From Alcanivorax sp. (GTDB lineage Bacteria; Pseudomonadota; Gammaproteobacteria; Pseudomonadales; Alcanivoracaceae), in contig NZ_JABURH010000100.1 in NCBI RefSeq assembly GCF_014762765.1, positions 454 to 64,453 on the forward strand: a stretch of DNA of 64,000 bases, in the 5' to 3' direction. How positions within the stretch are numbered: position 1 is the first letter of the stretch; the number at the start of each line of letters is the position of its first letter. Under the pieces are notes generated by a model, which had not been told where the DNA came from, ran no database searches, and was given only the letters and a program-made list of their open reading frames with translations. Below, in pieces: positions 2,215 through 56,384 of this stretch. Both the position numbers and the translations under genes were made by a program.

Positions 2215-2290
2215 TTTTCCACAAAGGCACAGAGCACACAGAGATAAAGTATCATTTCCTCAGTGAACTCTGTGCCCTCTGTGGTAAAAA
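2215..2290. repeat. CACAGAG 9-nt-period palindromic element, copy A
   Basis: Right arm TTTCCTCAGTGAACTCTGTGCCCTCTGTGGT is identical to copy B and is the exact reverse complement of the left arm of copy C. Confidence 0.9.
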
Positions 2291-2298
2291 CCATAGCC

Positions 2299-3848: not shown

Positions 3849-3865
3849 CGTCTCACTCGAAGCCG

Positions 3866-4107
3866 CTGTAGGAGCGGCGCTTGAGCCGCGAACCTTGCGC
3901 AGCAAGGAAGTCGCCCGTAGGGCGATCAGGGCTCCCAGAGCTCGACAGGTTTCTACACTGTGTGCGGCGCCTACATGGTCCCCGATAACGTTGTGGGAAA
4001 CGTGACTGGAAGCGTGTTACTGCGTTTGCCTGAGACTGCAATGCTTGATCGCCCTACAGGCGATTCCGCGCTCCGCGCGGTTCGCGGCTCAAGCGCCGCT
4101 CCTACAG
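3866..4107. repeat. REPIN-like element bounded by a perfect 29-bp GTAG inverted repeat
   Basis: CTGTAGGAGCGGCGCTTGAGCCGCGAACC (3866-3894) and its reverse complement (4079-4107). A nested inner repeat GTAGGGCGATCA/TGATCGCCCTAC is present. Confidence 0.85.
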
Positions 4108-4152
4108 TCGCTTCGTAGAAGGCATTTCCAGCGAAGCGTAGCTTGTAGCGAA

Positions 4153-4179
4153 AAAAAGCCCCGCGGTGCGGGGCTTTTT
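4153..4179. terminator. bidirectional intrinsic terminator
   Basis: AAAAAGCCCCGC-GGT-GCGGGGCTTTTT between convergent genes, next to the glcB stop. Confidence 0.85.
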
Positions 4180-4182
4180 GTC

Positions 4183-6342
4183 TTACTGGGCTTTCAGCTC
4201 ACGGCGACGACGGTGCAGAACCGGCTCGGTGTAGCCGCTGGGCTGGGAGCAGCCCTCGAACACCAGCTCTACCGCTGCCTGGAAGGCGACGGAGTTGTCG
4301 AAGTCCTTGGCCATGGGCACGTACAGCGGATCGTTGGCGTTCTGACGATCGACCACTTCGGCCATGCGCTTCAGGGTTTCCATCACCTGTTCCTGGTTGG
4401 TGATGCCGTGGTGCAGCCAGTTGGTCACGTGCTGGCTGGAGATACGCAGGGTGGCGCGGTCTTCCATCAGGCCCACATCATTGATGTCCGGCACCTTGGA
4501 ACAACCGACGCCCTGGTCGATCCAGCGTACCATGTAACCCAGAATACCCTGGGCGTTGTTATCCAGCTCCTGCTGGATCTCCTCGGCGGACAGCTCACGG
4601 GTGAGCAGCGGCACGGTGAGGATGTCGTCCAGGGAGGCACGCTTGCGGTTGGCCAGCTCTTTCTGCACCTGGGCCACGTTCACTTCGTGGTAGTGGGTCA
4701 CGTGCAGGGTAGCGGCGGTCGGGGACGGCACCCAGGCGCAGTTGGCGCCGGCTTTCGGGTGACCAGCCTTGGTGGCCATCATCTCGGCCATCTCGTCCGG
4801 CTTGGGCCACATGCCCTTGCCGATCTGGGCGTGGCCCGGCAGGCCGCACTCCAGGCCGATATCCACGTTCCAGTCTTCGTAGGCGTTGATCCACGGCAGG
4901 GCTTTCATGTCGCCCTTGCGCGCCATGGGGCCCGCTTCCATGGAAGTGTGCATTTCGTCACCGGTACGATCCAGGAAGCCGGTGTTGATGAAGATCACAC
5001 GCTCCTTGGCCTGACGGATACACTCCTTCAGGTTGACGGTGGTGCGGCGCTCTTCGTCCATAATGCCAATTTTCAAGGTGTTAGCAGCCAAACCTAAGGC
5101 TTTTTCTACACGCTCGAACAGCTCAACAGCGAAAGCCACTTCTTCCGGGCCGTGCATCTTGGGCTTCACGATGTACATGGAACCGGTGCGGCTGTTGCTC
5201 AGTGTGTTGAGCTTCTTCAGGTCATGCAGACCCGCCAGTACGGTCACCATGCCGTCCATGATGCCTTCCGGAGTCTCTTCCCCGTTCATCAGGATGGCCG
5301 GGTTGGTCATCAGGTGGCCCACGTTACGGACCAGCAGCAGGGAGCGACCGTGCAGGGTCAGGGTGGAGCCGTCCAGGGCGGTGTACTCGCGATCCGGGTT
5401 CATGGCGCGGGTCATGGTCTTGCCGCCCTTCTCGAAGGACTCCTGCAGGTCGCCCTTCATCAGGCCCGCCCAGTTGCGGTACACCTCGACCTTGTCTTCC
5501 GCATCCACGGCAGCCACGGAGTCTTCGCAGTCCTGGATGGTGGTGATGGCGGATTCCAGCAGCACATCCTTCATGTTCGCCGCGTCTTCAGCACCAATCG
5601 GGTGGCTGGCGTCGATCTGGATTTCCGCATGCAGGTTGTTGTGCTTGAGCAGGATGCCGGACGGAGCCGCCGCATCGCCCACGTAGCCCTGCAGCTGGGA
5701 CTCGTCTTTCAGGCCGCTCTTGTCACCGCCCAGAGACACTTCCAGCTTGCCATCGACGATGGCGTAGCCAGTGCTGTCCTTGTGGGAGCCGCTGGCCAGG
5801 GGGAAATAGTTATCCAGGAAGTCGCGGGCCCAGGCGATCACCTTGGCGCCACGCTTGGGGTTGTAGGCACCGCCTTTCTCGGCGCCGCCTTCATCGGAAA
5901 TCACGTCGGTGCCGTACAGGGCATCGTACAGGCTGCCCCAGCGGGCATTGGCCGCGTTCAGGGCGAAGCGGGCATTCTTCACCGGTACCACCAGCTGCGG
6001 CCCGGCGATGGTGCCGATCTCGTCATCCACATTCTCGGTGGTGACCTTGAAGTCGTCGCCTTCCGGCAACAGGTAGCCGATCTCGGTCAGGAACTGCTTG
6101 TACTCGGCCATGTCGATGGCCTGGCCTTTACGGGCCTTGTACCACTCATCCAGTTGCGCCTGGATGGTTTCACGCTTTTCCAGCAGCGCCTTGTTCTTGG
6201 GCGCCAGGTCCTTGAGGATGCTTTCCAGCTCGGCCCAGAAGTGTTCCGGGTCCACGCCGGTGCCCGGCGCAATCTCGTTGACTACCAGATCATGGAGTTC
6301 GGCAGCGATTTCGAGGCTACCCTTCTGAATACGATCGGTCAT
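4183..6342 (-). CDS. glcB: malate synthase G
   Basis: 719 aa from MTDRIQKG. Motifs [44 protein letters not shown] and [11 protein letters not shown]. Confidence 0.97.
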
Positions 6343-7427: not shown

Positions 7428-8224
7428 TACGTCACCTTCATTTTGCGGATCAATCGGCGGTACAGCGCGGGGCTCCAGCGTTTCAGGTAGACGCCCGCCC
7501 CTTCGCGGCCGGCGATGATAACCTGATCACGGCCACGCTGCACGGCCTTCACCAGCCGTTCGGCGCATTCTTCAGGGGGAATACCGGCTTCCTGGGCCTC
7601 GTCCATGCTGCCCTGGGCGGAACCATCCGCGGTGAGCGCATTGAGCGAGACATTGGTACGGATAAAGCCGGGCATCACCAGGGTCACCCGGATTCCGGCA
7701 TCGTACTCTTCCGCGCGCAGGGATTCGAAGAACCCATGCAAGGCATGCTTGCTGGCGCTGTAGGCGCTGCGCAGGGGCGTGGGCAATTCACCCACCAGTG
7801 AGGTGACCACCACAAACCGGCCACTGCCCTGCTCTTTCAGCCAGGGCAGCACCGCCTTGGTCAGTGCCACCGCCCCGAAGAAATTCACCTCCATGATGCG
7901 CCGATCCACCTCAAGATCGGTATCAGCCACCAGGGAACGCTGTGAAATGCCGCCGTTATGGATCACCTGATCAAGGCGATCAAAGCGGTTACGTACGGCC
8001 TCCACCGCCGCAGGCATGGCGCCGCTATCCGCCAGGTCCAGCGGCAGGACCAGATGATCATCGCCGTTGACCAGCCCCTCGCGGACCCGTTGCAGCTCCG
8101 CTTCCCGGCGGGCAGAAAGCACCAGCGTTGCGCCGCGGCGGGCATATTCCTTCGCCACTGCCTCGCCAATGCCGGAGGATGCTCCGGTAATCCATACCAC
8201 CTTGCCAGCCAGCGTTTCGGCCAT
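7427..8224 (-). CDS. SDR family oxidoreductase
   Basis: [12 protein letters not shown] and the catalytic YSASK. Confidence 0.9.
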
Positions 8225-8320
8225 CTAACACGCTCCTTGAAGTGAAAAGACACCGCAAGGGTAATGCTATGGACAGGAAATCCAAAGACTGAAACGCCAA
8301 ATACGCCAACTACACAGCCG

Positions 8321-8534
8321 CTGTAGGAGCGCCTCTCGAGGCGCGAACCGGCCGTGGCATGCTTTAGCTTACAGACTAACCTGCATACAACTGGCGAGCC
8401 CTGAAACGCCTGATCGCCCTGCGGACGATTTCCGTGCAAGCGCGGTTCGCGCCTCGAGAGGCGTTATTCGCTGCACTCACCCTTCGGGCCGCACGGAACT
8501 ACGTGTGTTACTCCGCTACGCTCCGTTCCTACAG
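8321..8534. repeat. REPIN-like GTAG element whose right arm is interrupted by a ~63-nt insert
   Basis: Left arm CTGTAGGAGCGCCTCTCGAGGCGCGAACCG. Right arm is CGGTTCGCGCCTCGAGAGGCG (8443-8463) + insert + TCCTACAG (8527-8534). Inner TGATCGCCCT is shared with the 3866 element. Confidence 0.8.
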
Positions 8535-8549
8535 CAGCCTTGTCGCTAA

Positions 8550-12177: not shown

Positions 12178-12732
12178 ATGTCAGATATCACCAACCCCAG
12201 CCTGAAAAATACTGTTCGACAATACTTCCAGGAGCAAGGCGAAGACGCCCCTACCTGGACGGAAATCCATGGCATGCTCTGTGCCCTGGCCGTGGGGCCA
12301 GAGGTGGAGTCAGTGGATTATGCTGCGGAGCTGGAGATGCCGGTTCCCGGGGAAGTCAGCGATGCCCTCAACCGGCTGCGCGAGCGGCTGGTCACCCAGT
12401 TGCTCGGTGGCGACGCCATCAACCTGCCCTGCCTGCTGGACCCATACCAGGAAGAGGACGGCCAGGATCTGGCAAGCTGGTGTGCCGGCTTCATGACCGG
12501 GGTTTTCGTCGATGAGGAAAACTGGTATCAGGATGATGAAGAACAAATGGCGCAACTGCTGCTGCCCTTCATTCTGATCTCCGGCCTGGACGATGACGAA
12601 GCCCTGGACACGCTGTGGGAAAACACCCAGGTGGTGCGGCAAATGGCCCTGAGCATTCCAGAAATACTGGAAGAGCTGTACCTGGCATTTCATGGCCCGG
12701 ATCAGGGTGACGCCTCCACCCCGGCGGATTAG
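12178..12732 (+). CDS. UPF0149/YecA family protein
   Basis: EIHGMLCALAVGP and WCAGFMTGV. SD GAGGA before ATG 12178. Confidence 0.75.
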   Translation: MSDITNPSLKNTVRQYFQEQGEDAPTWTEIHGMLCALAVGPEVESVDYAAELEMPVPGEVSDALNRLRERLVTQLLGGDAINLPCLLDPYQEEDGQDLASWCAGFMTGVFVDEENWYQDDEEQMAQLLLPFILISGLDDDEALDTLWENTQVVRQMALSIPEILEELYLAFHGPDQGDASTPAD

Positions 12733-15546: not shown

Positions 15547-16656
15547 ATGGCTGCGGATCTGTTTTTGTTAGGGTGCACCCTGGTCTTCGGGGTGAGCTTT
15601 CGCTTTCTCTTCCATCACCTGCCGCAAGAACGCTGGCAATTCGTCGCCTCGTTACCCCTGAAGAAAAACAGCGATGGCTCCTGGCAAGGCCTGAACCTGA
15701 CTTTCTATGGGTTATTTACCGGCATTGCAGGCGGGCTCGGGGTTGCCGCCTTCATTCTGCTCACCGCCTCCGCTGGCGTAGCCCTTGGTACTGCCCTGCT
15801 GCTAACGCTGGGAGTGCTGACCATTTGCCTGCCTGCGGCCAAGATAATTGCCACTGTGGTGGAAAAAAACCGCCATGGTTTTACCGTGGGCGGCGCCAGC
15901 TTTGTGGGCATTATCATCGCCCCGCTTTTTCTCTGGCTGGCTGACCTGGCCAGCCAGAGCTGGTGGGACACGGCCCTGCCGATTCTGCCCATGCTGGCGG
16001 CCATGTCCATTGCCTATGTGCTGGGTGAAGGCATCGGCCGGCTGGCGTGTATCAGCTTCGGCTGCTGTTACGGCAAGGCACTAAATCGCTCACCACGGTG
16101 GGCCCAGCGCCTGTTCTGTACCCTTAATCATGTGTTTATCGGCAAGACCAAGAAGATTGCCTTTGCCGGGGAAATGGAGGCGGTAAAGGTGATCCCCATC
16201 CAGGCAGTCACCTGCGTCATTTATACCGCCCTGGCCCTGCTCTGCAGCGCCCTGTTTTTCCATCGGCAATTTGCCCTGGCCTTTGCCCTGAGCCTGGTGG
16301 GCAGCCAGTTGTGGCGGGTGTATTCCGAGACACTGCGGGCAGATTATCGGGGCGGCAGCAAGCTGTTCTCCGTCTACCAACTGATGGCACTACTGGCCGC
16401 GCTCTATGGCGTTGCCATCAGCCTGGCGTTACCTGCCCATGCCGCCCTTGCCCCGGATCTGGCTGCCGGGCTGGGCGCCCTGTGGTCACCGGGCGTCATC
16501 CTCAGCCTGCAGGTCATCACCCTGGTCATGTTCTTCTTCTCCGGCACCAGCACCATCACCACCGGCGAACTCCGCTTCGGCCTGGCCGCAGACTGGCGCA
16601 GCCAGGCGGGGTGTGAAAAGGAAGGGTGCAAGGGAGAAGGCAAAGCTGTGGCATAA
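15547..16656 (+). CDS. prolipoprotein diacylglyceryl transferase (Lgt)-like membrane protein
   Basis: Multi-TM, with GFTVGGA, GIGRLACISFGCCYG and RVYSETLRAD. SD GAGGAG. Confidence 0.65.
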   Translation: MAADLFLLGCTLVFGVSFRFLFHHLPQERWQFVASLPLKKNSDGSWQGLNLTFYGLFTGIAGGLGVAAFILLTASAGVALGTALLLTLGVLTICLPAAKIIATVVEKNRHGFTVGGASFVGIIIAPLFLWLADLASQSWWDTALPILPMLAAMSIAYVLGEGIGRLACISFGCCYGKALNRSPRWAQRLFCTLNHVFIGKTKKIAFAGEMEAVKVIPIQAVTCVIYTALALLCSALFFHRQFALAFALSLVGSQLWRVYSETLRADYRGGSKLFSVYQLMALLAALYGVAISLALPAHAALAPDLAAGLGALWSPGVILSLQVITLVMFFFSGTSTITTGELRFGLAADWRSQAGCEKEGCKGEGKAVA

Positions 16657-16664
16657 AACCCATA

Positions 16665-16738
16665 TTTCACCACAGAGGGCACAGAGGACACGGAGAAAAA
16701 CGCTTTCCTCAGTGAACTCTGTGCCCTCTGTGGTGAAA
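16665..16738. repeat. CACAGAG 9-nt-period palindromic element, copy B
   Basis: TTTCACCACAGAGGGCACAGAGGACACGGAG...CTCAGTGAACTCTGTGCCCTCTGTGGTGAAA, between convergent genes. Confidence 0.9.
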
Positions 16739-16767
16739 CAGGTCTTTTGCACAAGCCCGGCAAAGCA

Positions 16768-19224: not shown

Positions 19225-19325
19225 GGAGGCTCCACGACGATGACCTGGCAGGGCCCAGTCTATGTCATCACGCCGGGCGGCACTATTGGTGATCCGTACC
19301 GGAAACTGGTCTCCTACAACAGAAG

Positions 19326-19395
19326 CGAGGTACGAGTAGTGAGTAACGAAAACAAGCTTTTTGCTCTTCGCTACTCGTCACTCGTGTCTCGAAAC
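19326..19395. repeat. CGAG 7-nt-period palindromic element, copy 1
   Basis: Left arm CGAGGTA CGAGTAG TGAGTAA CGAAAAC; right arm TTCGCTA CTCGTCA CTCGTGT CTCGAAAC. Confidence 0.75.
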
Positions 19396-31428: not shown

Positions 31429-33744
31429 CTACGTTAGCACTGCTTTTCCGGGCTGGCTACTCCGCCGCGCACGATCCAGTGCAATCAGTAACGGCACAAA
31501 GAAGAAAAAGTCCACAAACAGCGCCATGGCAATGGTGATCGCCGATAGCAGCCCCATGCTGGCATTGGGATAGAAGTGGCTGGTGCCAATAATTGCGAAA
31601 TTGGCCACCAGCACCACAGAGGTAGCGACCAGGGCCACCCCCACGGTGCGGAAGGCATAATCCACCGCTTTCTCGGTATTCAACCCCAGCTCCCGCTTGG
31701 CACGCACATACTTGCTGAGGAAATGCACCGTATCATCCACCACGATCCCCAGTGTCATGCAGGCCACCACCGACACGGCCAGGCCGATCTCACCATTGAT
31801 CAACCCCCAGAGACCGAACGCCATGGCAGCCGGCAGGAGATTGGGAATCAGCGACAGCAGTCCGTAGCGAACCGAACGCAGAGCCAGAATCAGAAGCAAT
31901 GAGACGCTGACCAGCGCAATCAGGGCACCGCCCAACATACTTTCGATATTACGCATGGTGACCCGACCGAACAGGATATCCATACCTGTCCCTTTGGTCT
32001 GCATGGCCGCTGGCCAGTTATCCTGCATCCACAGCTCTACCCGGTCGTTGAAATCCAGTACCGGCTTGGAACCTATGTTTTCCAGCACCACGATGGCCCG
32101 CGCCTGGCGCTTGTCGATATCCAGCTGATCTTCCAGGCCAAGCCCCTGGGGCAGCGACAACTCATACAGCAGGGTGTATTGGGAAATCAATTCCCGGGAA
32201 TCCGGAATGCGATAGTAAGCGGGATCACCACCGTGCAGGTCACGGTTAAGGCGTTTGATCACATTGGTATAGGAGGTGGCGTAGACCACTTCATCTTGCT
32301 GCTCCAGCCATGTCATCAGATTATCAAGATGCTGCAGATACTCCGGCTCCATGGTGCCGCCGGATTCTCCGGAAGGCACCGCATAATCAATGCGGTGCAT
32401 CCCGGTCATTTCCGACATGGCAAAATCGTTGACCCGCCTTACCTCGAACGTCTCGTCAAAGTATTCGTTGAAGACATCATTGGTACGGTTAAGCCCCACG
32501 CTCGCCGTCAGCACCACGACGACAACCGACATGCCTGCCAGCCAGCGCTTGTAATGGCGGCTGAGATGGCCGGCCAGAGCGCTCATCCAGGGGGAATAAT
32601 CACGCTGTCTGCCGGGTTCAATGCGATGCGGCAACAGCATCACAAGCGCCGGCAGAAGTAGCACAGAGAACACAAAGGCCAGCAAGACGCCGATCAGCAC
32701 CACATTCCCCAGTGCCCGGAACGGTTGTGACTCGGAAAAATTGAGGATGGCAAAGCCGATTGCCGTGGTCAGGCTGGTCAACCAGATTGGCTGCAGATTG
32801 ATTCGCAGGCTTTCCAGCAGGGCCGGTGTTTTGGCAATGCCCTGCAGGCGCTCATGGCGATAACTGGCGAGCAGATGCACGGAGTCCGCCACCGCCAGTG
32901 TCAGGATCATGGCCGGCGCCATACCCACGATGGGCGAAAACTCGATACCCAGCCACATGGCCACGCCCATTGCCGAAGCAATGGAGAAAGCGATCACCAC
33001 CACGGTTACCGCCACAAACATGGCACTACGCAGGATCAGCCAGAGACACAACAGCATCACCAAAAAGGCCAAAGGCAGCGTGGTCACCATGGACTGTTCC
33101 GTGGCTTCGGCAGAGGCCTGGGAGAACACTACAGTGCCGGTCACCATGAATTCGATATCCGGGTATTGCTCACCATAGGCCCGGGCCATTTCCCGGGCGG
33201 CGGCGGTGATTTCCGGGGCCTCGGTATTGCCCTCGCTCATGGTCACTGTTGCCACTACCCCGGCCACATGCCCCTTGTCCGAAATCAGTCGGCCAACCAG
33301 TGCGGGTTCGTCGAGGGCAATCTCCCGGGCTTGGTCGATATCCTCCGCCGACATGGACAGGGCGTCTTCCACCAGCGGCGCCACGAAGAGGTCATCGCCC
33401 TCCACTTCCGTGTGCTGAAAATTGGTCAGCGAATCCACCCGGGTGGAATGTGGCAGCGTCCAGGCATCGTCGGTCAGGGCTTCGATCGCCGCCAGGGCCT
33501 GCGGCTCAAACACCCGGTCATTCTTCGGGTGCACGACGAACAACACCATTTCGTTGGCCGTGAAGCTGTCTTCCAGGGAGACAAAGCGTTTGAAATCCGG
33601 GTTCTCTTCCGTGAAGAAAATGCGCGGATCGTTGTTGTTGTGGAAATGGCTCATACCCGCAGCCATGGCAAGGCACAGGCCGGTACAGACCAGCAGCACC
33701 CACACCGGATGGGCGACCACCCAGCGACTCCAAGCGTCTTTCAT
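31429..33744 (-). CDS. MMPL/RND family transporter
   Basis: Duplicated 6-TM halves with LAVADSVH and GIVVDDTVHF. Confidence 0.88.
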   Translation of the reverse strand: MKDAWSRWVVAHPVWVLLVCTGLCLAMAAGMSHFHNNNDPRIFFTEENPDFKRFVSLEDSFTANEMVLFVVHPKNDRVFEPQALAAIEALTDDAWTLPHSTRVDSLTNFQHTEVEGDDLFVAPLVEDALSMSAEDIDQAREIALDEPALVGRLISDKGHVAGVVATVTMSEGNTEAPEITAAAREMARAYGEQYPDIEFMVTGTVVFSQASAEATEQSMVTTLPLAFLVMLLCLWLILRSAMFVAVTVVVIAFSIASAMGVAMWLGIEFSPIVGMAPAMILTLAVADSVHLLASYRHERLQGIAKTPALLESLRINLQPIWLTSLTTAIGFAILNFSESQPFRALGNVVLIGVLLAFVFSVLLLPALVMLLPHRIEPGRQRDYSPWMSALAGHLSRHYKRWLAGMSVVVVVLTASVGLNRTNDVFNEYFDETFEVRRVNDFAMSEMTGMHRIDYAVPSGESGGTMEPEYLQHLDNLMTWLEQQDEVVYATSYTNVIKRLNRDLHGGDPAYYRIPDSRELISQYTLLYELSLPQGLGLEDQLDIDKRQARAIVVLENIGSKPVLDFNDRVELWMQDNWPAAMQTKGTGMDILFGRVTMRNIESMLGGALIALVSVSLLLILALRSVRYGLLSLIPNLLPAAMAFGLWGLINGEIGLAVSVVACMTLGIVVDDTVHFLSKYVRAKRELGLNTEKAVDYAFRTVGVALVATSVVLVANFAIIGTSHFYPNASMGLLSAITIAMALFVDFFFFVPLLIALDRARRSSQPGKAVLT

Positions 33745-33861: not shown

Positions 33862-34251
33862 ATGAGTAAAAAACAGACCTACAGCATCGGCGAGCTGGCC
33901 CGGGAATTTGATGTCACCACCCGCACCATCCGCTTTTACGAAGACCAGGGCCTGGTGACTCCGCAACGACGGGGCCAGACTCGGGTCTACACCCCCGCCG
34001 ATCGGGTCACCCTGAAACTGATACTGCGCGGTAAGCGACTGGGATTTTCCCTGGCCGAATCCAAAGAGTTGATCCGCATGTACCAGCCCCAGGGCGATAA
34101 CCGCAGTCAGCTTCTCGCCCTGCAGGGAAAGATTCACCAGCGCCGAGCACAATTGGAACAACAACTTCGGGATATTCAGGTCATGCAGCGGGAACTCGAT
34201 GACGCCGAGCAGCGCTGCCTGGACGCCCTTCACGATCTGGAGACACAATAA
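33862..34251 (+). CDS. liuR: MerR family regulator LiuR
   Basis: [22 protein letters not shown] and [14 protein letters not shown]. Stop overlaps the liuA start. Confidence 0.92.
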
Positions 34252-35414
34252 TGTTCAACAGCACTTTCAATTTTCATCTGGGCGAAACTATCGATGCGCT
34301 CCGTGATACGGCCCGTGCCTTTGCCCAGAAAGAAATTGCCCCCCTGGCCGCCGAAATCGACCGCAGCAATGAGTTCCCCCTGCCGTTGTGGAAAAAAATG
34401 GGCGATCTGGGCCTGCTGGGTATTACCGCTGACGAAGAATACGGCGGCGCCAACATGGGCTACCTGGCCCACACCATTGTGGTAGAGGAAATTTCCCGGG
34501 CTTCTGCGTCTATCGGTCTCTCCTACGGCGCCCACTCCAACCTGTGCGTCAACCAGATTGTTATCAACGGTACCGACGAGCAGAAAGCCCGGTATCTGCC
34601 CAAACTGATCAGCGGTGACCATATCGGTGCCCTGGCCATGAGCGAGCCCGGTGCCGGGTCCGATGTGGTCAGCATGAAGCTGCGCGCCGAAAAGAAAGGC
34701 GACCGCTACATCCTCAATGGCAACAAGATGTGGATTACCAACGGCCCTGACGCCCATACCTATGTGATCTACGCCAAGACTGACAGCAATGCAGGCCCCC
34801 GAGGCATCACAGCGTTCATCGTCGAGCGTGATTTCCCCGGCTTCTCCCGCGCTCAAAAGCTGGACAAACTGGGCATGCGTGGCTCCAACACCTGCGAGCT
34901 GGTGTTCGAAGACTGCGAAGTCCCCGCCGAAAACATCCTCGGCAAGGAAAACGAGGGTGTGAAAGTGCTGATGAGCGGCCTGGATTACGAGCGCACCATT
35001 CTTTCCGGGGGCCCGGTAGGCGTGATGCAGGCCTGTATGGACGAAGTGGTGCCCTACATCCACGAGCGCAAACAGTTTGGTCAGGCCATCGGCGAGTTCC
35101 AGCTGATACAGGGCAAGATCGCCGACATGTACGTGATGCTCAATACCAGCCGCAGCTATCTCTACCATGTGGCTCAGGCCTGTGACCGCGGCGAGACCAA
35201 CCGCAAGGATGCCGCCGGCGTGATCCTCTACTGCGCCGAAAATGCCACCAAGATGGCACTGGAAGCGATCCAGACCCTGGGCGGTAACGGCTACATCAAC
35301 GACTACAACACCGGTCGCCTGCTGCGCGACGCCAAGCTCTATGAAATCGGCGCCGGCACCAGTGAAATCCGTCGCATGCTGATCGGCCGCGAGCTGTTTA
35401 ACGAAACCGCCTGA
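34251..35414 (+). CDS. liuA: isovaleryl-CoA dehydrogenase
   Basis: [26 protein letters not shown] (IVD catalytic Glu) and [10 protein letters not shown]. Confidence 0.95.
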
Positions 35415-35432
35415 CCAAGCCAGCAAAAGAAA

Positions 35433-35503
35433 TTTTCACCACAGAGGGCACAGAGTTCACTGAGGAAAACCTTATCTCTGTGTGCTCTGTGACCTCTGTG
35501 GTA
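35433..35503. repeat. CACAGAG 9-nt-period palindromic element, copy C (inverted relative to A and B)
   Basis: ACCACAGAGGGCACAGAGTTCACTGAGGAAA...TTATCTCTGTGTGCTCTGTGACCTCTGTGGT in the liuA-liuB spacer. Confidence 0.9.
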
Positions 35504-35527
35504 AGAAACGGTTTTTGCGAGACTCCT

Positions 35528-37135
35528 ATGCCCAAGATCAATAGCCAGATCAATCCTGCCAGCCCGGAATTTCAGGCCAATCGGGAACACAACCTGACAC
35601 TGCGCCAGCAGCTGCAGGAAAAACTGGACCACATCGCCCACGGCGGTGGCGAAGCCGCCGAACAGCGCCTGCGCGAGCGCGGCAAGCTGCCGGTCCGTGA
35701 ACGTATCAACCTGCTGCTGGACCCGGGCTCCCCGTTTCTGGAGATTTCCGCCCTGGCCGCCGAAGGGGTCTATGGGGAAGACGTGCCGGCGGCGGGCTGT
35801 GTGGGCGGCATCGGTCAGATCCACGGCGTGGAATGCATGATCGTCGCTAACGATCCCTCGGTAAAAGGCGGCAGCTACTACCCGCTGACCGTGAAAAAAC
35901 ACCTGCGGGCCCAGGCCATTGCCGCCGAAAACCGGCTTCCCTGTGTCTATCTGGTGGATTCCGGCGGTGCCAACCTGCCCCGTCAGGATGAGGTCTTCCC
36001 GGATCGCGAACACTTTGGCCGCATCTTCTTCAACATGGCCAACATGTCCGCCCGCGGCATTCCCCAGATCAGTGTGGTACTGGGCTCCTGCACCGCTGGC
36101 GGCGCCTACGTGCCGGCCATGGCCGACGAAGTGATCATGGTCAAGGAACAGGCCACCATCTTCCTGGCCGGCCCGCCGCTGGTGAAAGCGGCCACCGGCG
36201 AGGTAGTCACCGCCGAGGAGCTGGGCGGCGCCAACCTGCACTGTGAACAATCCGGGGTGGCCGATCATCTGGCCGAAGACGAACCCCACGCCCTGGAACT
36301 GGCCCGCCGCTCCATTGCCCACCTGAACTGGCACAAGCCCGATCAGGTCAACCGTCAGCCGGTACGGCCGCCAGCTTACGATCCCAACGAGCTTTACGGC
36401 GTCATTCCCACCACGACCCGCCAGCCCATGCCGGCACGGGAACTGATTGCGCGCATCGTGGACGGCTCCGAACTGGATGAATTCAAGGCCCGCTATGGCA
36501 CTACCCTGGTGTGCGGCTTTGCCCATATCCACGGCTATCCGGTGGGCCTTCTTGCCAACGATGGGGTGCTTTATTCCGAGTCTGCCCAGAAAGGCGCGCA
36601 CTTCATCGAACTGTGTAACCAGCGAAAGATTCCGCTGCTGTTCCTGCAGAACATCACCGGCTTCATGGTGGGCAAGAAATACGAGTCCGAAGGCATCGCC
36701 AAACACGGCGCCAAGATGGTCAACGCTGTGGCCTGTGCCAGCGTGCCCAAATTCACCGTGATCACCGGTGGCAGCTTCGGCGCCGGTAACTATGGCATGT
36801 GTGGACGCTCCTACGATCCGCGCTTCATGTTCATGTGGCCCAATGCCCGTATTGGCGTAATGGGCGGGGAACAGGCCGCCAGCGTGCTGACTCAGGTAAA
36901 GCAGGCCTCGTTGAAGAAGAAAGGTCAGCAATGGAGTGACGAGGAAGCTGCCGCCTTCCAGGCAGATATGACCGAGCGCTACGAAGAAATGGCGCAACCC
37001 TGGTACGCCAGCGCACGGCTGTGGGACGACGGCGTGATCGATCCCGCCGACACCCGCGATGTGCTCGGCCTGGCCATTTCTGCCAGCTTGAATGCGCCGA
37101 TTGAAGAGACACGGTATGGCGTGTTTCGGATGTGA
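35528..37135 (+). CDS. liuB: methylcrotonoyl-CoA carboxylase beta subunit
   Basis: [24 protein letters not shown] and ARLWDDG. Confidence 0.95.
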
Positions 37136-37139
37136 TTGG

Positions 37140-37168
37140 GTCGGACGTCCGACGTCTGACGTCCGACG
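37140..37168. repeat. heptamer tandem repeat TCNGACG x4
   Basis: TCGGACG TCCGACG TCTGACG TCCGACG, including the perfect palindrome GTCGGACGTCCGAC. Confidence 0.75.
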
Positions 37169-37189
37169 CTCAAAAACCTGGAGCAGGAT

Positions 37190-37963
37190 ATGAGCGTAAC
37201 AATACAAACAGAAGGTTCGGTGGCCAGAATCACTCTGGACAACCCGGAAAAACGCAACGCCTTCGATGACCGCATCATTGCCTCGCTGACGGAAGCTTTT
37301 GAGCAAGCCGGCAGCGATGACGGTGTCCGCGTGGTGGTGTTGCAGGCCGCCGGCAAACATTTTTCCGCGGGCGCCGACCTCAACTGGATGCGCGCCATGG
37401 GAAAACTGGATGCGCAACAAAACCGGGACGATGCACTGAAACTGGCGCGGCTGATGCAGTCTATCGACCAGTGCCCCAAGCCTGTTATCGCCCGGGTTCA
37501 GGGCGCAGCCTTTGGCGGTGCTCTGGGCCTGATCTGCGCCGCCGACATGGCGGTGGCCGCCGACAATGCCCGCTTCTGCCTCAGCGAAGTGAAGCTGGGC
37601 ATCGTGCCAGCGGTGATCAGCCCCTATGTGGTGCGGGCTATGGGCGCCCGGCAGGCCAATCGTTATTTCATGACGGCGGAAGTGATCCCCGCCGAGCGGG
37701 CCGTAGCGCTGGGCATTGCCCATGAGGTCGTTCCGGAAAGCGAGCTGAACGACAGCGTGGATTCCCTGATCAACGCCCTGCTCGCCGCCGCCCCCCAAGC
37801 ACAGATCGAAGCCCGCAACCTGATCGCCCGCGTCAGCCACGGCCCCATTGATCAGGCCATGCTCGACGACACCGCCGACCTGATCGCCCGGCTGCGAACC
37901 GGAGAAGAAGGCCAGGAAGGGCTGAGTGCCTTTCTGGAAAAACGAACACCCAACTGGATCTGA
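37190..37963 (+). CDS. liuC: methylglutaconyl-CoA hydratase (crotonase family)
   Basis: FSAGADLNWM, FGGALG and SEVKLGIVPAVISPYV. Confidence 0.9.
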   Translation: MSVTIQTEGSVARITLDNPEKRNAFDDRIIASLTEAFEQAGSDDGVRVVVLQAAGKHFSAGADLNWMRAMGKLDAQQNRDDALKLARLMQSIDQCPKPVIARVQGAAFGGALGLICAADMAVAADNARFCLSEVKLGIVPAVISPYVVRAMGARQANRYFMTAEVIPAERAVALGIAHEVVPESELNDSVDSLINALLAAAPQAQIEARNLIARVSHGPIDQAMLDDTADLIARLRTGEEGQEGLSAFLEKRTPNWI

Positions 37964-37972
37964 TCCACTACC

Positions 37973-38037
37973 CGTAGGAGCGTCGCTGGCGGCGCGATAA
38001 GCCACGACGAAATCGCGCCGCCAGCGACGCTCCTACG
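37973..38037. repeat. GTAG REP doublet, perfect 26-bp inverted repeat
   Basis: CGTAGGAGCGTCGCTGGCGGCGCGAT, 13-nt spacer, then its reverse complement. Confidence 0.85.
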
Positions 38038-38056
38038 GCAGGACAAAGGCAACACC

Positions 38057-40006
38057 ATGGCAACGATAAAAAAACTCCTGATCGCCAACCGAGGCGAAAT
38101 CGCCCGGCGCATTATCCGCACCTGCCGCCAGCAAGGCATCGCTACCGTGGCGGTCTACTCCGATGTGGATGCCTCTCTGCCCCATGTCCGTGAGGCAGAT
38201 CAGGCAGTCTGCCTGGGTCCGGCGCCGGCGCGGGAGAGCTATCTGGTGATCGACAAGGTCATCGCCGCCGCCAGAGAAACCGGCGCCGATGCCATTCACC
38301 CGGGGTACGGATTCCTTTCCGAGAACACCGCCTTTGCTGCCGCCTGTGAAAACGCGGGTATCATTTTTGTCGGCCCCAATGCCCGAGCCATTGAGGTCAT
38401 GGGCGACAAGGCCGCCGCCCGGCAATTGATGGCGAACAGCGGCGTGCCGGTATTGCCCGGTTTCGATGAGGAAGGCGCCAGTGATGATGACCTGGTTCGC
38501 GCCAGCGAACAGGTGGGTTTTCCACTTCTGATAAAGGCCGTAGCCGGCGGTGGTGGCAAGGGCATGCGAGTGGTCAATAGCGCCAGCGAATTCAACGAAG
38601 CGCTGGCAGCGGCACGCCGCGAAGCCAGCGGCGCCTTTGGCGATGACCGGGTGCTGCTGGAGCGCTATCTGCCAACAGCCCGCCACGTGGAGGTCCAGGT
38701 ATTCGCTGACAATCACGGTAACGCGGTGCATCTGTTCGAGCGGGACTGTTCGGTACAGCGTCGCCACCAGAAAATCATCGAGGAGGCCCCGGCGCCGGGG
38801 CTGGACGAGGCCACCCGGAACGCCTTTGGTGACGCCGCGGTCCAGGCCGCCAAGGCCATTGATTACCGCGGTGCGGGTACCGTCGAGTTCCTCTACGGTC
38901 CCGATGGCCAGTTCTACTTTATGGAAATGAACACTCGCCTGCAGGTAGAACACCCGGTGACGGAAATGATCACCGGCGAAGACCTGGTCGCCTGGCAGCT
39001 GGCCGTCGCCGCCGGCGATCCACTGCCCAAAGCGCAGCACCAGATCGAACGTCACGGCCACGCCATGGAAGTGCGTCTCTATGCGGAGAACCCGGAACAG
39101 GGCTTCCTGCCCTCTTCCGGCCTGCTCAGCCATCTGCGCTGGCCCCATGAGGTGGCCCGGGTGGATGCCGGATATGAGCATGGCGACCGGGTGGACGATC
39201 ACTACGATCCCATGATCGCCAAGTTGATCTGCCATGGTGGGTCCCGCCATGAGGCCCGCCGGAAACTGATCACGGCTCTGGACGCCCTGGAGCTGAAAGG
39301 CATCCACCACAATGCCCCCTTCCTGCACCGGGTGCTCAACGACGATGCCTTTGCCGATGGCGACCTGGATACCCGTCTTCTGGAACACCGCCCACACCTG
39401 CTCGAGGCCACGGTGACCGAACTGGCGCTGCTGGCCCTGGCCGCCAGCCAGGTAATCGCTGCCGACAGCATCAACGACTCCCCCTGGCAAAGTCTGCAAG
39501 GCTGGCGACCCATGGGCCGGCGTTTTCGGCAAACCCTGCTTCAGGTGGATGGCGACCTGATCACCGTCCGCGAACAGGACGGCGTTGCCTCCGTGGGCGA
39601 CAAACAGGCGCCCCTTGTTGCGACACGGGATGCCCAGACCATCAACCTGCATTGGGGCACCAACGGTTTGCGCGCACGCCATGCCCGCAAAGATGACAGC
39701 ACCCTGCTGTTGTTCGTGGCCGGACAGGCCCATGAAATCACTCTCAATCCCAGCCGCGACAGTGCCCAACATGACGATGCAGCCGGCTTCATCGCGCCCA
39801 TGAGTGGCACCATCGTTGCCCTGCATGTGTCCGCGGGCGATGCCGTTGCTGCTGGCGATGCAGTCATTACACTGGAAGCCATGAAAATGGAGCACACCCT
39901 GCGCGCAACGGTGCCGGGGACCGTGCATGACTTTCATGTGGCAACCGGAGACAGCGTCAGCGAAGGCACCTTGCTGGTGGAATTTGAAGAGGCCGCTGAC
40001 GACTGA
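38057..40006 (+). CDS. liuD: methylcrotonoyl-CoA carboxylase alpha (biotin) subunit
   Basis: ANRGEIA, GGGGKGMR, MNTRLQVEHPVTE and the biotin site EAMKMEH. Confidence 0.93.
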   Translation: MATIKKLLIANRGEIARRIIRTCRQQGIATVAVYSDVDASLPHVREADQAVCLGPAPARESYLVIDKVIAAARETGADAIHPGYGFLSENTAFAAACENAGIIFVGPNARAIEVMGDKAAARQLMANSGVPVLPGFDEEGASDDDLVRASEQVGFPLLIKAVAGGGGKGMRVVNSASEFNEALAAARREASGAFGDDRVLLERYLPTARHVEVQVFADNHGNAVHLFERDCSVQRRHQKIIEEAPAPGLDEATRNAFGDAAVQAAKAIDYRGAGTVEFLYGPDGQFYFMEMNTRLQVEHPVTEMITGEDLVAWQLAVAAGDPLPKAQHQIERHGHAMEVRLYAENPEQGFLPSSGLLSHLRWPHEVARVDAGYEHGDRVDDHYDPMIAKLICHGGSRHEARRKLITALDALELKGIHHNAPFLHRVLNDDAFADGDLDTRLLEHRPHLLEATVTELALLALAASQVIAADSINDSPWQSLQGWRPMGRRFRQTLLQVDGDLITVREQDGVASVGDKQAPLVATRDAQTINLHWGTNGLRARHARKDDSTLLLFVAGQAHEITLNPSRDSAQHDDAAGFIAPMSGTIVALHVSAGDAVAAGDAVITLEAMKMEHTLRATVPGTVHDFHVATGDSVSEGTLLVEFEEAADD

Positions 40007-40095
40007 CAGCCGCGGCCTGTGGGCCCGCGCAATGAGCAACCTGATGAAAACCACCGGACACTTGCTGCCGGACACCAGACACTTGGGAGAACAGA

Positions 40096-42036
<1,941 letters not shown>

Positions 42037-45183: not shown

Positions 45184-45254
45184 GTTGCGAGAAGCGGGTT
45201 ACAAGGAGCGAAAAGCTGCTTTTTTTCGGAACTCGTACCTCGTGACTCGCAACT
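45184..45254. repeat. CGAG 7-nt-period palindromic element, copy 2 (inverted relative to copy 1)
   Basis: Reverse complement shares CGAGGTACGAGT and the AAAA..AGC..TTTT..TTCGCT core with 19326-19395. Confidence 0.7.
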
Positions 45255-56294: not shown

Positions 56295-56384
56295 CAATTG
56301 AAAATTGATAATGAATAATTGATAACGAAAGAGGCGCCCAATCAAAGCGCCTCTTTTTTTGTTTTAGCTATCAATTGTCAATTA
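56295..56384. repeat. inverted AATTGA heptamer arrays flanking a terminator
   Basis: CAATTGA AAATTGA TAATGAA TAATTGA TAACGAA ... TATCAATTGTCAATTA. Confidence 0.8.
56328..56360. terminator. intrinsic terminator of htpX
   Basis: AAAGAGGCGC-N9-GCGCCTCTTTTTTT. Confidence 0.85.

Follow-up and report, generated by a model that had tools for sequence, protein, structure and literature searches.

This work concerns the repeats lying in the spacers of the liu operon in a 64-kb stretch of Alcanivorax DNA, the whole of which was analysed and is referred to below as the window. The gene order liuR-liuA-liuB-liuC-liuD-acetoacetyl-CoA synthetase was supported by the open reading frames (ORFs) and by the Pfam domains of identical genes in public contigs. 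On the + strand the operon comprises liuR (33862..34251) encoding a MerR-family regulator (PF00376, PF13411, PF09278), liuA (34251..35414) encoding isovaleryl-CoA dehydrogenase with Acyl-CoA_dh domains, liuB (35528..37135) for the methylcrotonyl-CoA carboxylase beta subunit (Carboxyl_trans), liuC (37190..37963) for methylglutaconyl-CoA hydratase (ECH_1), liuD (38057..40006) for the methylcrotonyl-CoA carboxylase alpha (biotin) subunit (Biotin_carb_N, CPSase_L_D2, BT_MCC_alpha, Biotin_lipoyl) and the acetoacetyl-CoA synthetase gene (40096..42036; ACAS_N, AMP-binding), called the ligase gene for short. The LiuB protein of the window is 99 % identical to that of Alcanivorax sp. DSM 26293 and 98 % identical to those of strain IL2 and A. 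jadensis T9. The spacers are 113 nt (liuA/liuB), 54 nt (liuB/liuC), 93 nt (liuC/liuD) and 89 nt (liuD/ligase) long, and liuR and liuA overlap, as an earlier reading of the sequence alone (the sequence-only reading) had stated, by one shared base (TAATG).

The liuA/liuB spacer contains a nonamer-arm palindrome (35433..35507; the repeat elements have no assigned strand unless one is given), which begins 19 nt 3' of the liuA stop and finishes 20 nt before the liuB ATG. Its arms consist of three 9-nt units (CACAGAGNN): the left arm CCACAGAGG GCACAGAGT TCACTGAGG is followed by an A-rich loop and a mirrored right arm. The inverted repeat 35433-35464 / 35476-35507 has 32-nt arms, 81 % complementary, around an 11-nt loop, and its RNA fold was calculated at -47.5 kcal/mol (z = -6.1). 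The lag-9 match of each arm was 0.65-0.67, a value reached by at most 2/5000 shuffles. The CACAGAG palindrome reported for this junction by the sequence-only reading was therefore confirmed by inverted repeat, 9-nt periodicity and stable fold. The CACAGAG motif occurs 20 times in the window (8.7 expected), with a concentration in this palindrome and in two others, at 2216..2295 and at 16655..16748. Both of the latter lie between convergent genes; the copy at 16655..16748 has 45-nt arms and was present in all ten near-identical strains (identical ModC).

The liuC/liuD spacer contains a doublet of GTAG repetitive extragenic palindromes (REPs), i.e. a REPIN (37972..38038), made of two inverted 27-nt units, CCGTAGGAGCGTCGCTGGCGGCGCGAT. 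The arms (37972-37998 / 38012-38038) are 100 % complementary with a 13-nt loop between them, the fold reaches -62.5 kcal/mol (z = -10.6) and the element begins 8 nt 3' of the liuC stop; with arms fully complementary over 27 nt, the doublet is as perfect as first described. GTAG is located at 37974-37977 and CTAC at 38033-38036, and the same head was found in copies at 3868, 4105 and 8323. Each 27-nt unit includes the short imperfect palindrome GCGUCGC-UG-GCGGCGC; in other REP copies of the window the stems are GCGGC..GCCGC and GCGCCTC..GAGGCGC. The copies are dispersed and extragenic, occupying three loci in 64 kb, and the family is also found in Alloalcanivorax loci. The two remaining loci of the window are a REPIN of this REP family at 3858..4115, with a second GTAG REP pair nested inside, and a GTAG REP pair of the same family at 8312..8543, with perfect 21-nt inner arms (8330-8350 / 8443-8463). 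GTAG REPs, which are RAYT-associated, were defined by Di Nocera et al. 2013 (PMC3733652). The liuC/liuD units resemble this super-family in being inverted with a short spacer (13 nt), GTAG-headed, built as short imperfect palindromes and present in several extragenic copies in the window, and variants were found at liu junctions of the compared loci L005, L006, L022, L026, L030 and L046 (L001-L232 are labels of the compared loci). The liuC/liuD doublet differs in its perfect complementarity over 27 nt, which is unusually clean.

The remaining two spacers contain heptamers. The array GTCGGAC GTCCGAC GTCTGAC GTCCGAC G of the CGYCNGA type (37140..37168) begins 4 nt after the liuB stop, comprises 4.1 copies of a 7-mer with 86 % matches according to Tandem Repeats Finder (TRF) and is self-complementary, forming a hairpin with a 10-bp stem (-23.9 kcal/mol, z = -3.0). 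Its lag-7 match of 0.86 was reached by 0/5000 shuffles, and the heptamers previously noticed at liuB/liuC stand on this period and on the 4.1 units. The weakest element, the decayed heptamers CACCGGA CACTTGC TGCCGGA CACCAGA CACTTGG (40052..40086), lies between liuD and the ligase gene. In this spacer two 13-mers were found 21 nt apart (12/13 match) and CCGGACAC occurs twice, 14 nt apart. The lag-7 match was 0.50, with p of about 0.004 for the hand-picked segment and 0.05 over any lag, the heptamer pattern search was at chance level for the window and the spacer is unstructured (z = +0.8). The heptamers claimed for this junction were accordingly retained in part: the 13-mers and a faint 7-nt period are there, against a pattern at chance level and the lack of structure in the spacer. 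Directly after the liuD stop there is also a small GC-rich stem-loop (40009..40030, + strand), the stem of which is conserved in L002 and L003, where the loops differ. There are no GGG runs, and hence no quadruplex G-tracts, in the GTCNGAC or CACCGGA units.

The units at liuB/liuC (CGTCCGA, CGTCTGA) and at liuD/ligase (CACCGGA, TGCCGGA, CACCAGA) are variants of one heptamer, CGYCNGA, so that the spacers hold three kinds of element and not four; the initial description of four unrelated elements was overstated. Units of this type build two-armed palindromes at liuA/liuB in L001, L012, L014, L039 and L046. Three of the liuD/ligase units are one mismatch away from the CGCCGGA/CGCCAGA arms of Alloalcanivorax elements: in L023 (Alloalcanivorax mobilis) an element with (GACGCYG)n arms is present in five copies in 13.6 kb (273-406, 4002-4193, 5831-5989, 7617-7761 and 12514-12652), with a core that holds the hairpin GTGTTTCCTG..CAGGAAACAC and has no Rfam match. 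The chance level of the pattern searches for the window, the unstructured liuD/ligase spacer, the decay of its 13-mer direct repeat in L002 and L003 and the single GTCNGAC array in 64 kb would fit chance or local simple-sequence repeats without relatives or function at liuD/ligase and perhaps at liuB/liuC. We consider this origin very unlikely in view of the lag-7 match at liuB/liuC, the two-armed palindromes formed by identical units in five relatives, the single mismatch separating liuD/ligase units from the arms of the multi-copy L023 element, and the period-7 and period-14 arrays in Alcanivoracaceae loci, which exceed those in shuffles (44 + 12 vs 14 + 4).

The gene map used was built from codon usage and is approximate. 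Three of the four internal liu spacers were structured (z about -3 or lower) in comparison to 3/27 other co-directional gaps; the hypergeometric estimate of about 0.016 for this modest enrichment is post hoc. None of the eight divergent gaps of the window was structured, and every structured gap lies downstream of a gene. In total, the window contains three nonamer palindromes, three GTAG REP loci and two further heptamer-arm palindromes, both with ACGAGNN units: one at 19321..19389, with an A/T-rich loop, in a co-directional gap, and one at 45184..45253, the first base of which directly follows the stop of the upstream gene. The liuB/liuC array, with about four or more tandem 7-nt units, is, like the copy at 45184, intergenic and close behind the upstream ORF. 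The RNA runs were metatranscriptomes available as contigs only, informative on repeat copies and not on RNA ends or abundance. Their contigs span liuA/liuB, liuB/liuC and liuD/ligase and show many different flanks at 35433 together with a depth spike there, and assemblies break at the repeats. In the same contigs a REP half is joined to the start of the nonamer palindrome via about 20-26 nt, in several variants and with depth up to 66; REP and nonamer elements are hence often neighbours elsewhere in these genomes.

Metagenome contigs were scanned for CCACAGAGNNCACAGAGNNCAC, which gave at least 120 loci on contigs of 35-71 % GC. Among the matches listed, 161/215 nonamer arrays had three units, and 59 inverted pairs were separated by a median gap of 40 nt (maximum 379 nt). 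Clustering of the neighbouring ORFs of the 120 loci listed produced one recurrent small family, found at 3 loci, each time exactly between two inverted arrays, and no other recurrent neighbour gene. The family is the GxxExxY protein of about 125 aa (TIGR04256, PF13366 PDDEXK_3, PD-(D/E)XK); the three arm-flanked proteins are pairwise 45-68 % identical and are encoded on contigs of 41-60 % GC. The reciprocal search with the GxxExxY family gave at least about 8000 matches at E <= 1e-10, most of the 120 listed being on 1-2-kb contigs. Perfect arms were found in L216, where the GxxExxY homologue lies behind uvrB, variant five-unit arms in seven cassette copies from one metagenome assembly (L211-L215, L230-L231) and decayed arms in the GxxExxY contexts of L232 and L217. 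As many as 77 of the 120 closest homologues listed begin with ..TTExTExTE.., which corresponds to the left arm read in frame, the called start of the protein preceding that arm; L149 has its arm in another reading frame.

Immediately upstream of each of the seven cassette copies lies a transposase gene of the IS630 insertion sequence (IS) family (HTH_29/HTH_33/DDE_3), or what is left of one; the copies have different outer flanks. Either the IS630 element and the GxxExxY cassette form a composite mobile unit, or the IS targets the cassette end.

The liuA/liuB palindrome shares the features of the cassette ends, i.e. three tandem units CAC(A/G)GAGNN per arm in inverted arms, an outer end of the form TT..(A/G)CCACAGAG and, following the third unit, an A-rich stretch (in the window TTTTCACCACAGAGG...GAGGAAAAC). 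The same outer and inner ends were seen in L091-L210 and in L216, and the Alcanivorax nonamer copies in general carry the cassette outer end (TTTCACCACAGAGG) and the A-rich inner end. No GxxExxY gene (TIGR04256 / PF13366) lies between the arms at liuA/liuB. Since the loop has only 11 nt and the window and the Alcanivorax loci contain no GxxExxY ORF, the palindrome is, judged by its sequence, a gene-less form of the ends of the GxxExxY cassette, similar to a MITE (miniature inverted-repeat transposable element). Like MITEs, it is a short palindrome devoid of genes, derived from a longer, gene-carrying form with the same ends, is multi-copy and assembly-breaking and occurs in either orientation. 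It differs from them in that the 'parent' carries a protein of about 125 aa of the PD-(D/E)XK family and not a DDE, serine or tyrosine transposase, and in that the ends are arrays of three 9-nt units; the likeness itself is one of sequence alone.

The GxxExxY protein may be the acting nuclease or recombinase of pan-bacterial minimal mobile cassettes, the ends of which would be arrays of three 9-nt protein-binding units. Palindromes with periodic arms of 7-, 8- and 9-nt units in Geobacter, Xanthomonas, cyanobacteria and Alcanivorax would then be gene-less derivatives or sister families, homing behind stop codons including operon junctions. This proposal is tentative, and we regard it as possible rather than probable. 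Among solved structures none was related to GxxExxY by sequence, no relatives were confirmed in viral contigs and the defence-system models gave a weak resemblance to Cas4 only. The AlphaFold model was poor, with a predicted local distance difference test (pLDDT) score of 64.5, and in the fold search with this model no match was significant, the hits being scattered PD-(D/E)XK folds at E >0.07.

The sequence-only reading had proposed scoring the junctions in relatives, and the four spacers were extracted from 48 Alcanivoracaceae and 32 outgroup loci (80 in total). The junctions were highly variable, with at least seven occupants at liuA/liuB, a nested insertion and opposite orientations. At liuA/liuB the window and L002-L005 carry the nonamer palindrome. 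Palindromes of GTCNGAC heptamers occupy this spacer in L001, L012, L014, L039 and L046, those of the GCGTCTG type in L006, L007, L010, L011 and L013, and those of the CACGCNN type in L009, L025, L027, L029, L043 and L045. L023 has a heptamer-arm element of 172 nt with a core, L022 and L030 have multiple GTAG REPs, and L031, L033 and L037 have other large palindromes; in ten genomes this spacer was 0-3 nt long. The liuC/liuD REPIN was found in nine relatives, and the REPIN loop of L010, L012 and L045 accommodates a nested heptamer-arm element, the core of which is about 105 nt long. This core (AACGCGA...CTGTGCCCAT...CGCGGGCAC...AAAACAT; L006:8428-8593, L004:3250-3415, L010:8470-8650) has CAAGCTN heptamers on its flanks in some genomes and AAAGTTN heptamers in others, all units of both arms being changed in concert. 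L004 and L006 carry it in opposite orientations with different arms, and L006 and L010 with different, co-varying arms. In Litorivivens-type outgroup loci a REPIN-like insert of about 600 nt is present at liuB/liuC.

In Alcanivorax sensu stricto liuA/liuB and liuC/liuD were filled in 17/17 genomes and the liuB/liuC spacer exceeded 35 nt in 17/18, the occupant of liuA/liuB being the nonamer palindrome or one of three heptamer-palindrome flavours. In other Alcanivoracaceae, spacers of 35 nt or less were found in 14/27 cases at liuA/liuB, 23/28 at liuB/liuC, 23/27 at liuC/liuD and 24/24 at liuD/ligase, and in most deeper-branching relatives the spacers were 0-23 nt long, which suggests that compact junctions may be the older state. 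None of the 80 loci had a protein-coding gene inserted at a liu junction. The earlier idea that operon junctions are colonised by several classes of small elements, left as solo scars of cassettes, is supported by the variable junctions and by the liuA/liuB palindrome as the putative gene-less form of a cassette, and lacks the gene-carrying cassette, which was found at none of the 80 liu loci. Two of these loci showed duplications: at liuA/liuB in L016 (5847-5997) and L022 (5674-6000) there is a second copy of the last 80 nt or so of liuA, which in L022 also includes the first bases of liuB and lies beside GTAG REPINs. L016 and L022 represent a junction duplication associated with REPs.

The comparison of close strains showed how one occupant can be exchanged for another. 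For most of its length the operon of the window is 98-100 % identical to that of L001; the liuA/liuB spacers of the two are unrelated, and so are the liuB/liuC spacers. At three-way informative sites the window is L001-like on both sides and L003-like (A. jadensis-like) only across approximately 35384-35545, a tract of about 160 bp comprising the last 30 nt of liuA, the entire spacer and 18 nt of liuB. Because the A. jadensis-like tract is confined to this segment in L001-like surroundings, the difference at liuA/liuB is the result of short-tract homologous recombination and not of a new insertion. The liuB/liuC spacer sits in a mosaic tract (approximately 37042-37440), which is suggestive of the same process. 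The same four spacers were present in ten strains with identical LiuC, with a few single-nucleotide polymorphisms and an unchanged number of heptamers. Operon spacer alleles can hence be exchanged between strains by recombination tracts shorter than 200 bp, which matters if the repeats are used as strain markers. The gene for an MMPL-family transporter upstream of liuR (31900-33300) is 82-88 % identical to that of L001 amid 96-100 % identity; it is a further recombination patch, and the region is mosaic.

These results are best explained, with a probability of about 0.72, if the liu spacers are landing and holding sites for non-autonomous palindromic repeats of three kinds. The first kind would be the nonamer-arm palindrome as a miniature gene-less form of the pan-bacterial cassette in which a GxxExxY PD-(D/E)XK gene lies between inverted arms, the second the CGYCNGA-type heptamer arrays, apparently intact at liuB/liuC and decayed at liuD/ligase, and the third the GTAG REP doublet. 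All would have settled just 3' of stop codons, where an insertion may survive because the coding sequence and the downstream ribosome-binding site are spared. The lineage of Alcanivorax sensu stricto would have been colonised, and its occupants later replaced, nested into or decayed; between close strains whole spacer alleles would be swapped by short-tract homologous recombination with the conserved gene ends as homology arms. REPINs are moved by the RAYT transposase, and the same may be presumed for those described here. The GxxExxY protein could act on its own 9-mer arrays, the heptamer arrays could grow and homogenise via replication slippage, and the hairpins would alter segmental mRNA decay merely as a by-product.

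Several observations weigh against this explanation. Neither the window nor the 13.6-kb loci yielded a RAYT gene, and no GxxExxY ORF was present in the window, in any Alcanivorax locus or, apart from the three arm-flanked genes, in any other locus of the liu comparison or the nonamer scan. The window holds one copy of the GTCNGAC array, which may be a locally evolving simple repeat and not a mobile element. Neither the ten strains with identical LiuC nor the ten with identical ModC showed insertion/absence polymorphism, so ongoing mobility in this genome is unsupported. Finally, a strong hairpin (dG <= -20) is present at liuA/liuB in 17/17 and at liuC/liuD in 16/17 close-clade genomes, whatever the element, and a few changes in the REPIN are compensatory, e.g. 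GTAG/CTAC to GCAG/CTGC in L002. The conserved occupancy of these two junctions could mean that the hairpin is selected. The hairpins would then be kept to tune the operon: they would set the decay or processing of the upstream mRNA segment, or impede the terminating ribosome, and in this way adjust the LiuA:LiuB:LiuC:LiuD:ligase ratios, with the identity of the element being irrelevant. At liuB/liuC the hairpin starts 4 nt and at liuC/liuD 8 nt behind the stop codon, and the Shine-Dalgarno region is always outside the stems, both of which agree with such a role. In E. coli REPs stabilise the upstream mRNA in malE-malF and lower translation when located near stop codons. The liu elements resemble these E. 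coli REPs and bacterial interspersed mosaic elements (BIMEs) as stable stem-loops without a U-tract between co-transcribed genes, near the upstream stop.

The comparative pattern speaks against tuning. The stabilising or translational effect was measured in E. coli, whereas the relatives of the window show no structural constraint: sister clades with the same gene order have spacers of 0-23 nt, liuB/liuC is essentially unstructured in most close relatives (dG <= -20 in 1/18), the liuD/ligase spacer lacks structure, covariation is absent from the liuA/liuB hairpin (0 compensatory pairs among seven copies) and the folding energy of the REPIN decays across orthologues from -62 to -25 kcal/mol. 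Nor do the junctions contain terminator-like or promoter-like sites: 0/8 terminator-like matches of the operon fall in a junction, the count being equal to the shuffle expectation, and the operon scan gave no promoter site in any of the four. It is therefore unlikely that the hairpins are kept for tuning, and the colonisation of the spacers by palindromic repeats remains the preferred explanation. The idea of one designed element per junction is unsupported; the outcome for the liu operon is ordinary, its spacers being, as in many bacteria, a dumping ground for selfish palindromic repeats.

Arrays of this architecture have been noted in other bacteria. The heptamer repeats of cyanobacteria known as short tandemly repeated repetitive (STRR) sequences are comparable. 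Rehm et al. 2015 (PMC4692102) described heptamer arrays in Xanthomonas and Nostoc: most consist of four units, and they lie in intergenic regions, at a mean distance of 28 nt behind the preceding ORF and for the most part between genes of the same direction; Xanthomonas has 70-75 convergent inverted pairs per genome, with length and sequence varying between close species (PMC4692102). The Xanthomonas/Nostoc units (GGGAATC) are rich in G and were investigated for G-quadruplex formation, whereas the Alcanivorax heptamers (CGYCNGA, CACGCNN, ACGAGNN, AAGCTTN) have no G-tracts and some of them flank a conserved core of about 100 nt. The Alcanivorax heptamer arrays thus have the Xanthomonas/Nostoc architecture and are a different subtype. 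For Geobacter metallireducens, the part of the report of Aklujkar et al. 2009 (PMC2700814) available here describes paired sites of class 2 and class 3. In class 2 a site consists of three tandem TCTCCGTS[Y] units; there are 21 pairs of such sites, the two partners being on opposite strands and separated by variable distances. In class 3 a site comprises five MTYCTGA heptamers, and one of the eight pairs lies within an operon, between proB and proA. Compared by published consensus, the reverse complement of the class 2 unit is CACGGAGA, a variant common in the arrays found here. Against both classes as described in that part of the report, the arms found here differ in being linked to GxxExxY genes and pan-bacterial.

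In the same part of their report, Aklujkar et al. 2009 guessed that the paired sites bind integration host factor (IHF), HU or a global regulator, and no gene between the arms is reported there (PMC2700814). Applied to the window, the 7- and 9-nt inverted arrays would be bound by a chromosomal protein, either a nucleoid protein or a 'global regulator', and would act on liu transcription or on DNA topology. The strict periodicity of units with conserved and variable positions is consistent with this. That the same nonamer recurs on contigs of 35-71 % GC points to a protein partner that is likewise conserved, for which the GxxExxY protein, with its gene between the arms, is the simpler candidate. 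In the window the arrays never lie in divergent promoter gaps, in close relatives they are replaced by unrelated elements, and the Geobacter proposal was a guess; we regard such binding arrays as highly improbable.

The expectation of an undescribed system, voiced in the sequence-only reading, was borne out at one point. REPINs are well known and inverted heptamer or nonamer arrays had been noted in Geobacter and Xanthomonas; the literature searchable here yielded neither a paper linking such arrays to GxxExxY genes nor a description of the cassette. The new link connects the periodic palindromes noted in genome papers since 2009 with the very large GxxExxY / PDDEXK_3 family, which is annotated without a function. 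It makes both the palindromes and the protein family directly testable, and is the part worth following.

Integron attC sites were considered as a further candidate for the spacers and rejected, since neither RYYYAAC nor GTTRRRY occurs in any of the four. Rfam 15 gave no match for the window at gathering thresholds, and for the related loci only sub-threshold generic hairpin (plant miRNA) matches, judged spurious. In Alcanivoracaceae the acetoacetyl-CoA synthetase gene directly follows liuD with no gene between (40007-42036 in the window). In the Litorivivens and Bacterioplanes loci (L049, L053, L054, L058 and L069) about 900-940 nt separate the two genes, a gap large enough for the 3-hydroxy-3-methylglutaryl-CoA (HMG-CoA) lyase gene liuE, which is a candidate only. 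At 56296-56384 the window contains AT-rich 14-nt tandem repeats (TGAAAATTGATAA) with an inverted partner, located between two genes, which we take to be operator-like (Fur-box-like) and unlike the palindromic repeat families.

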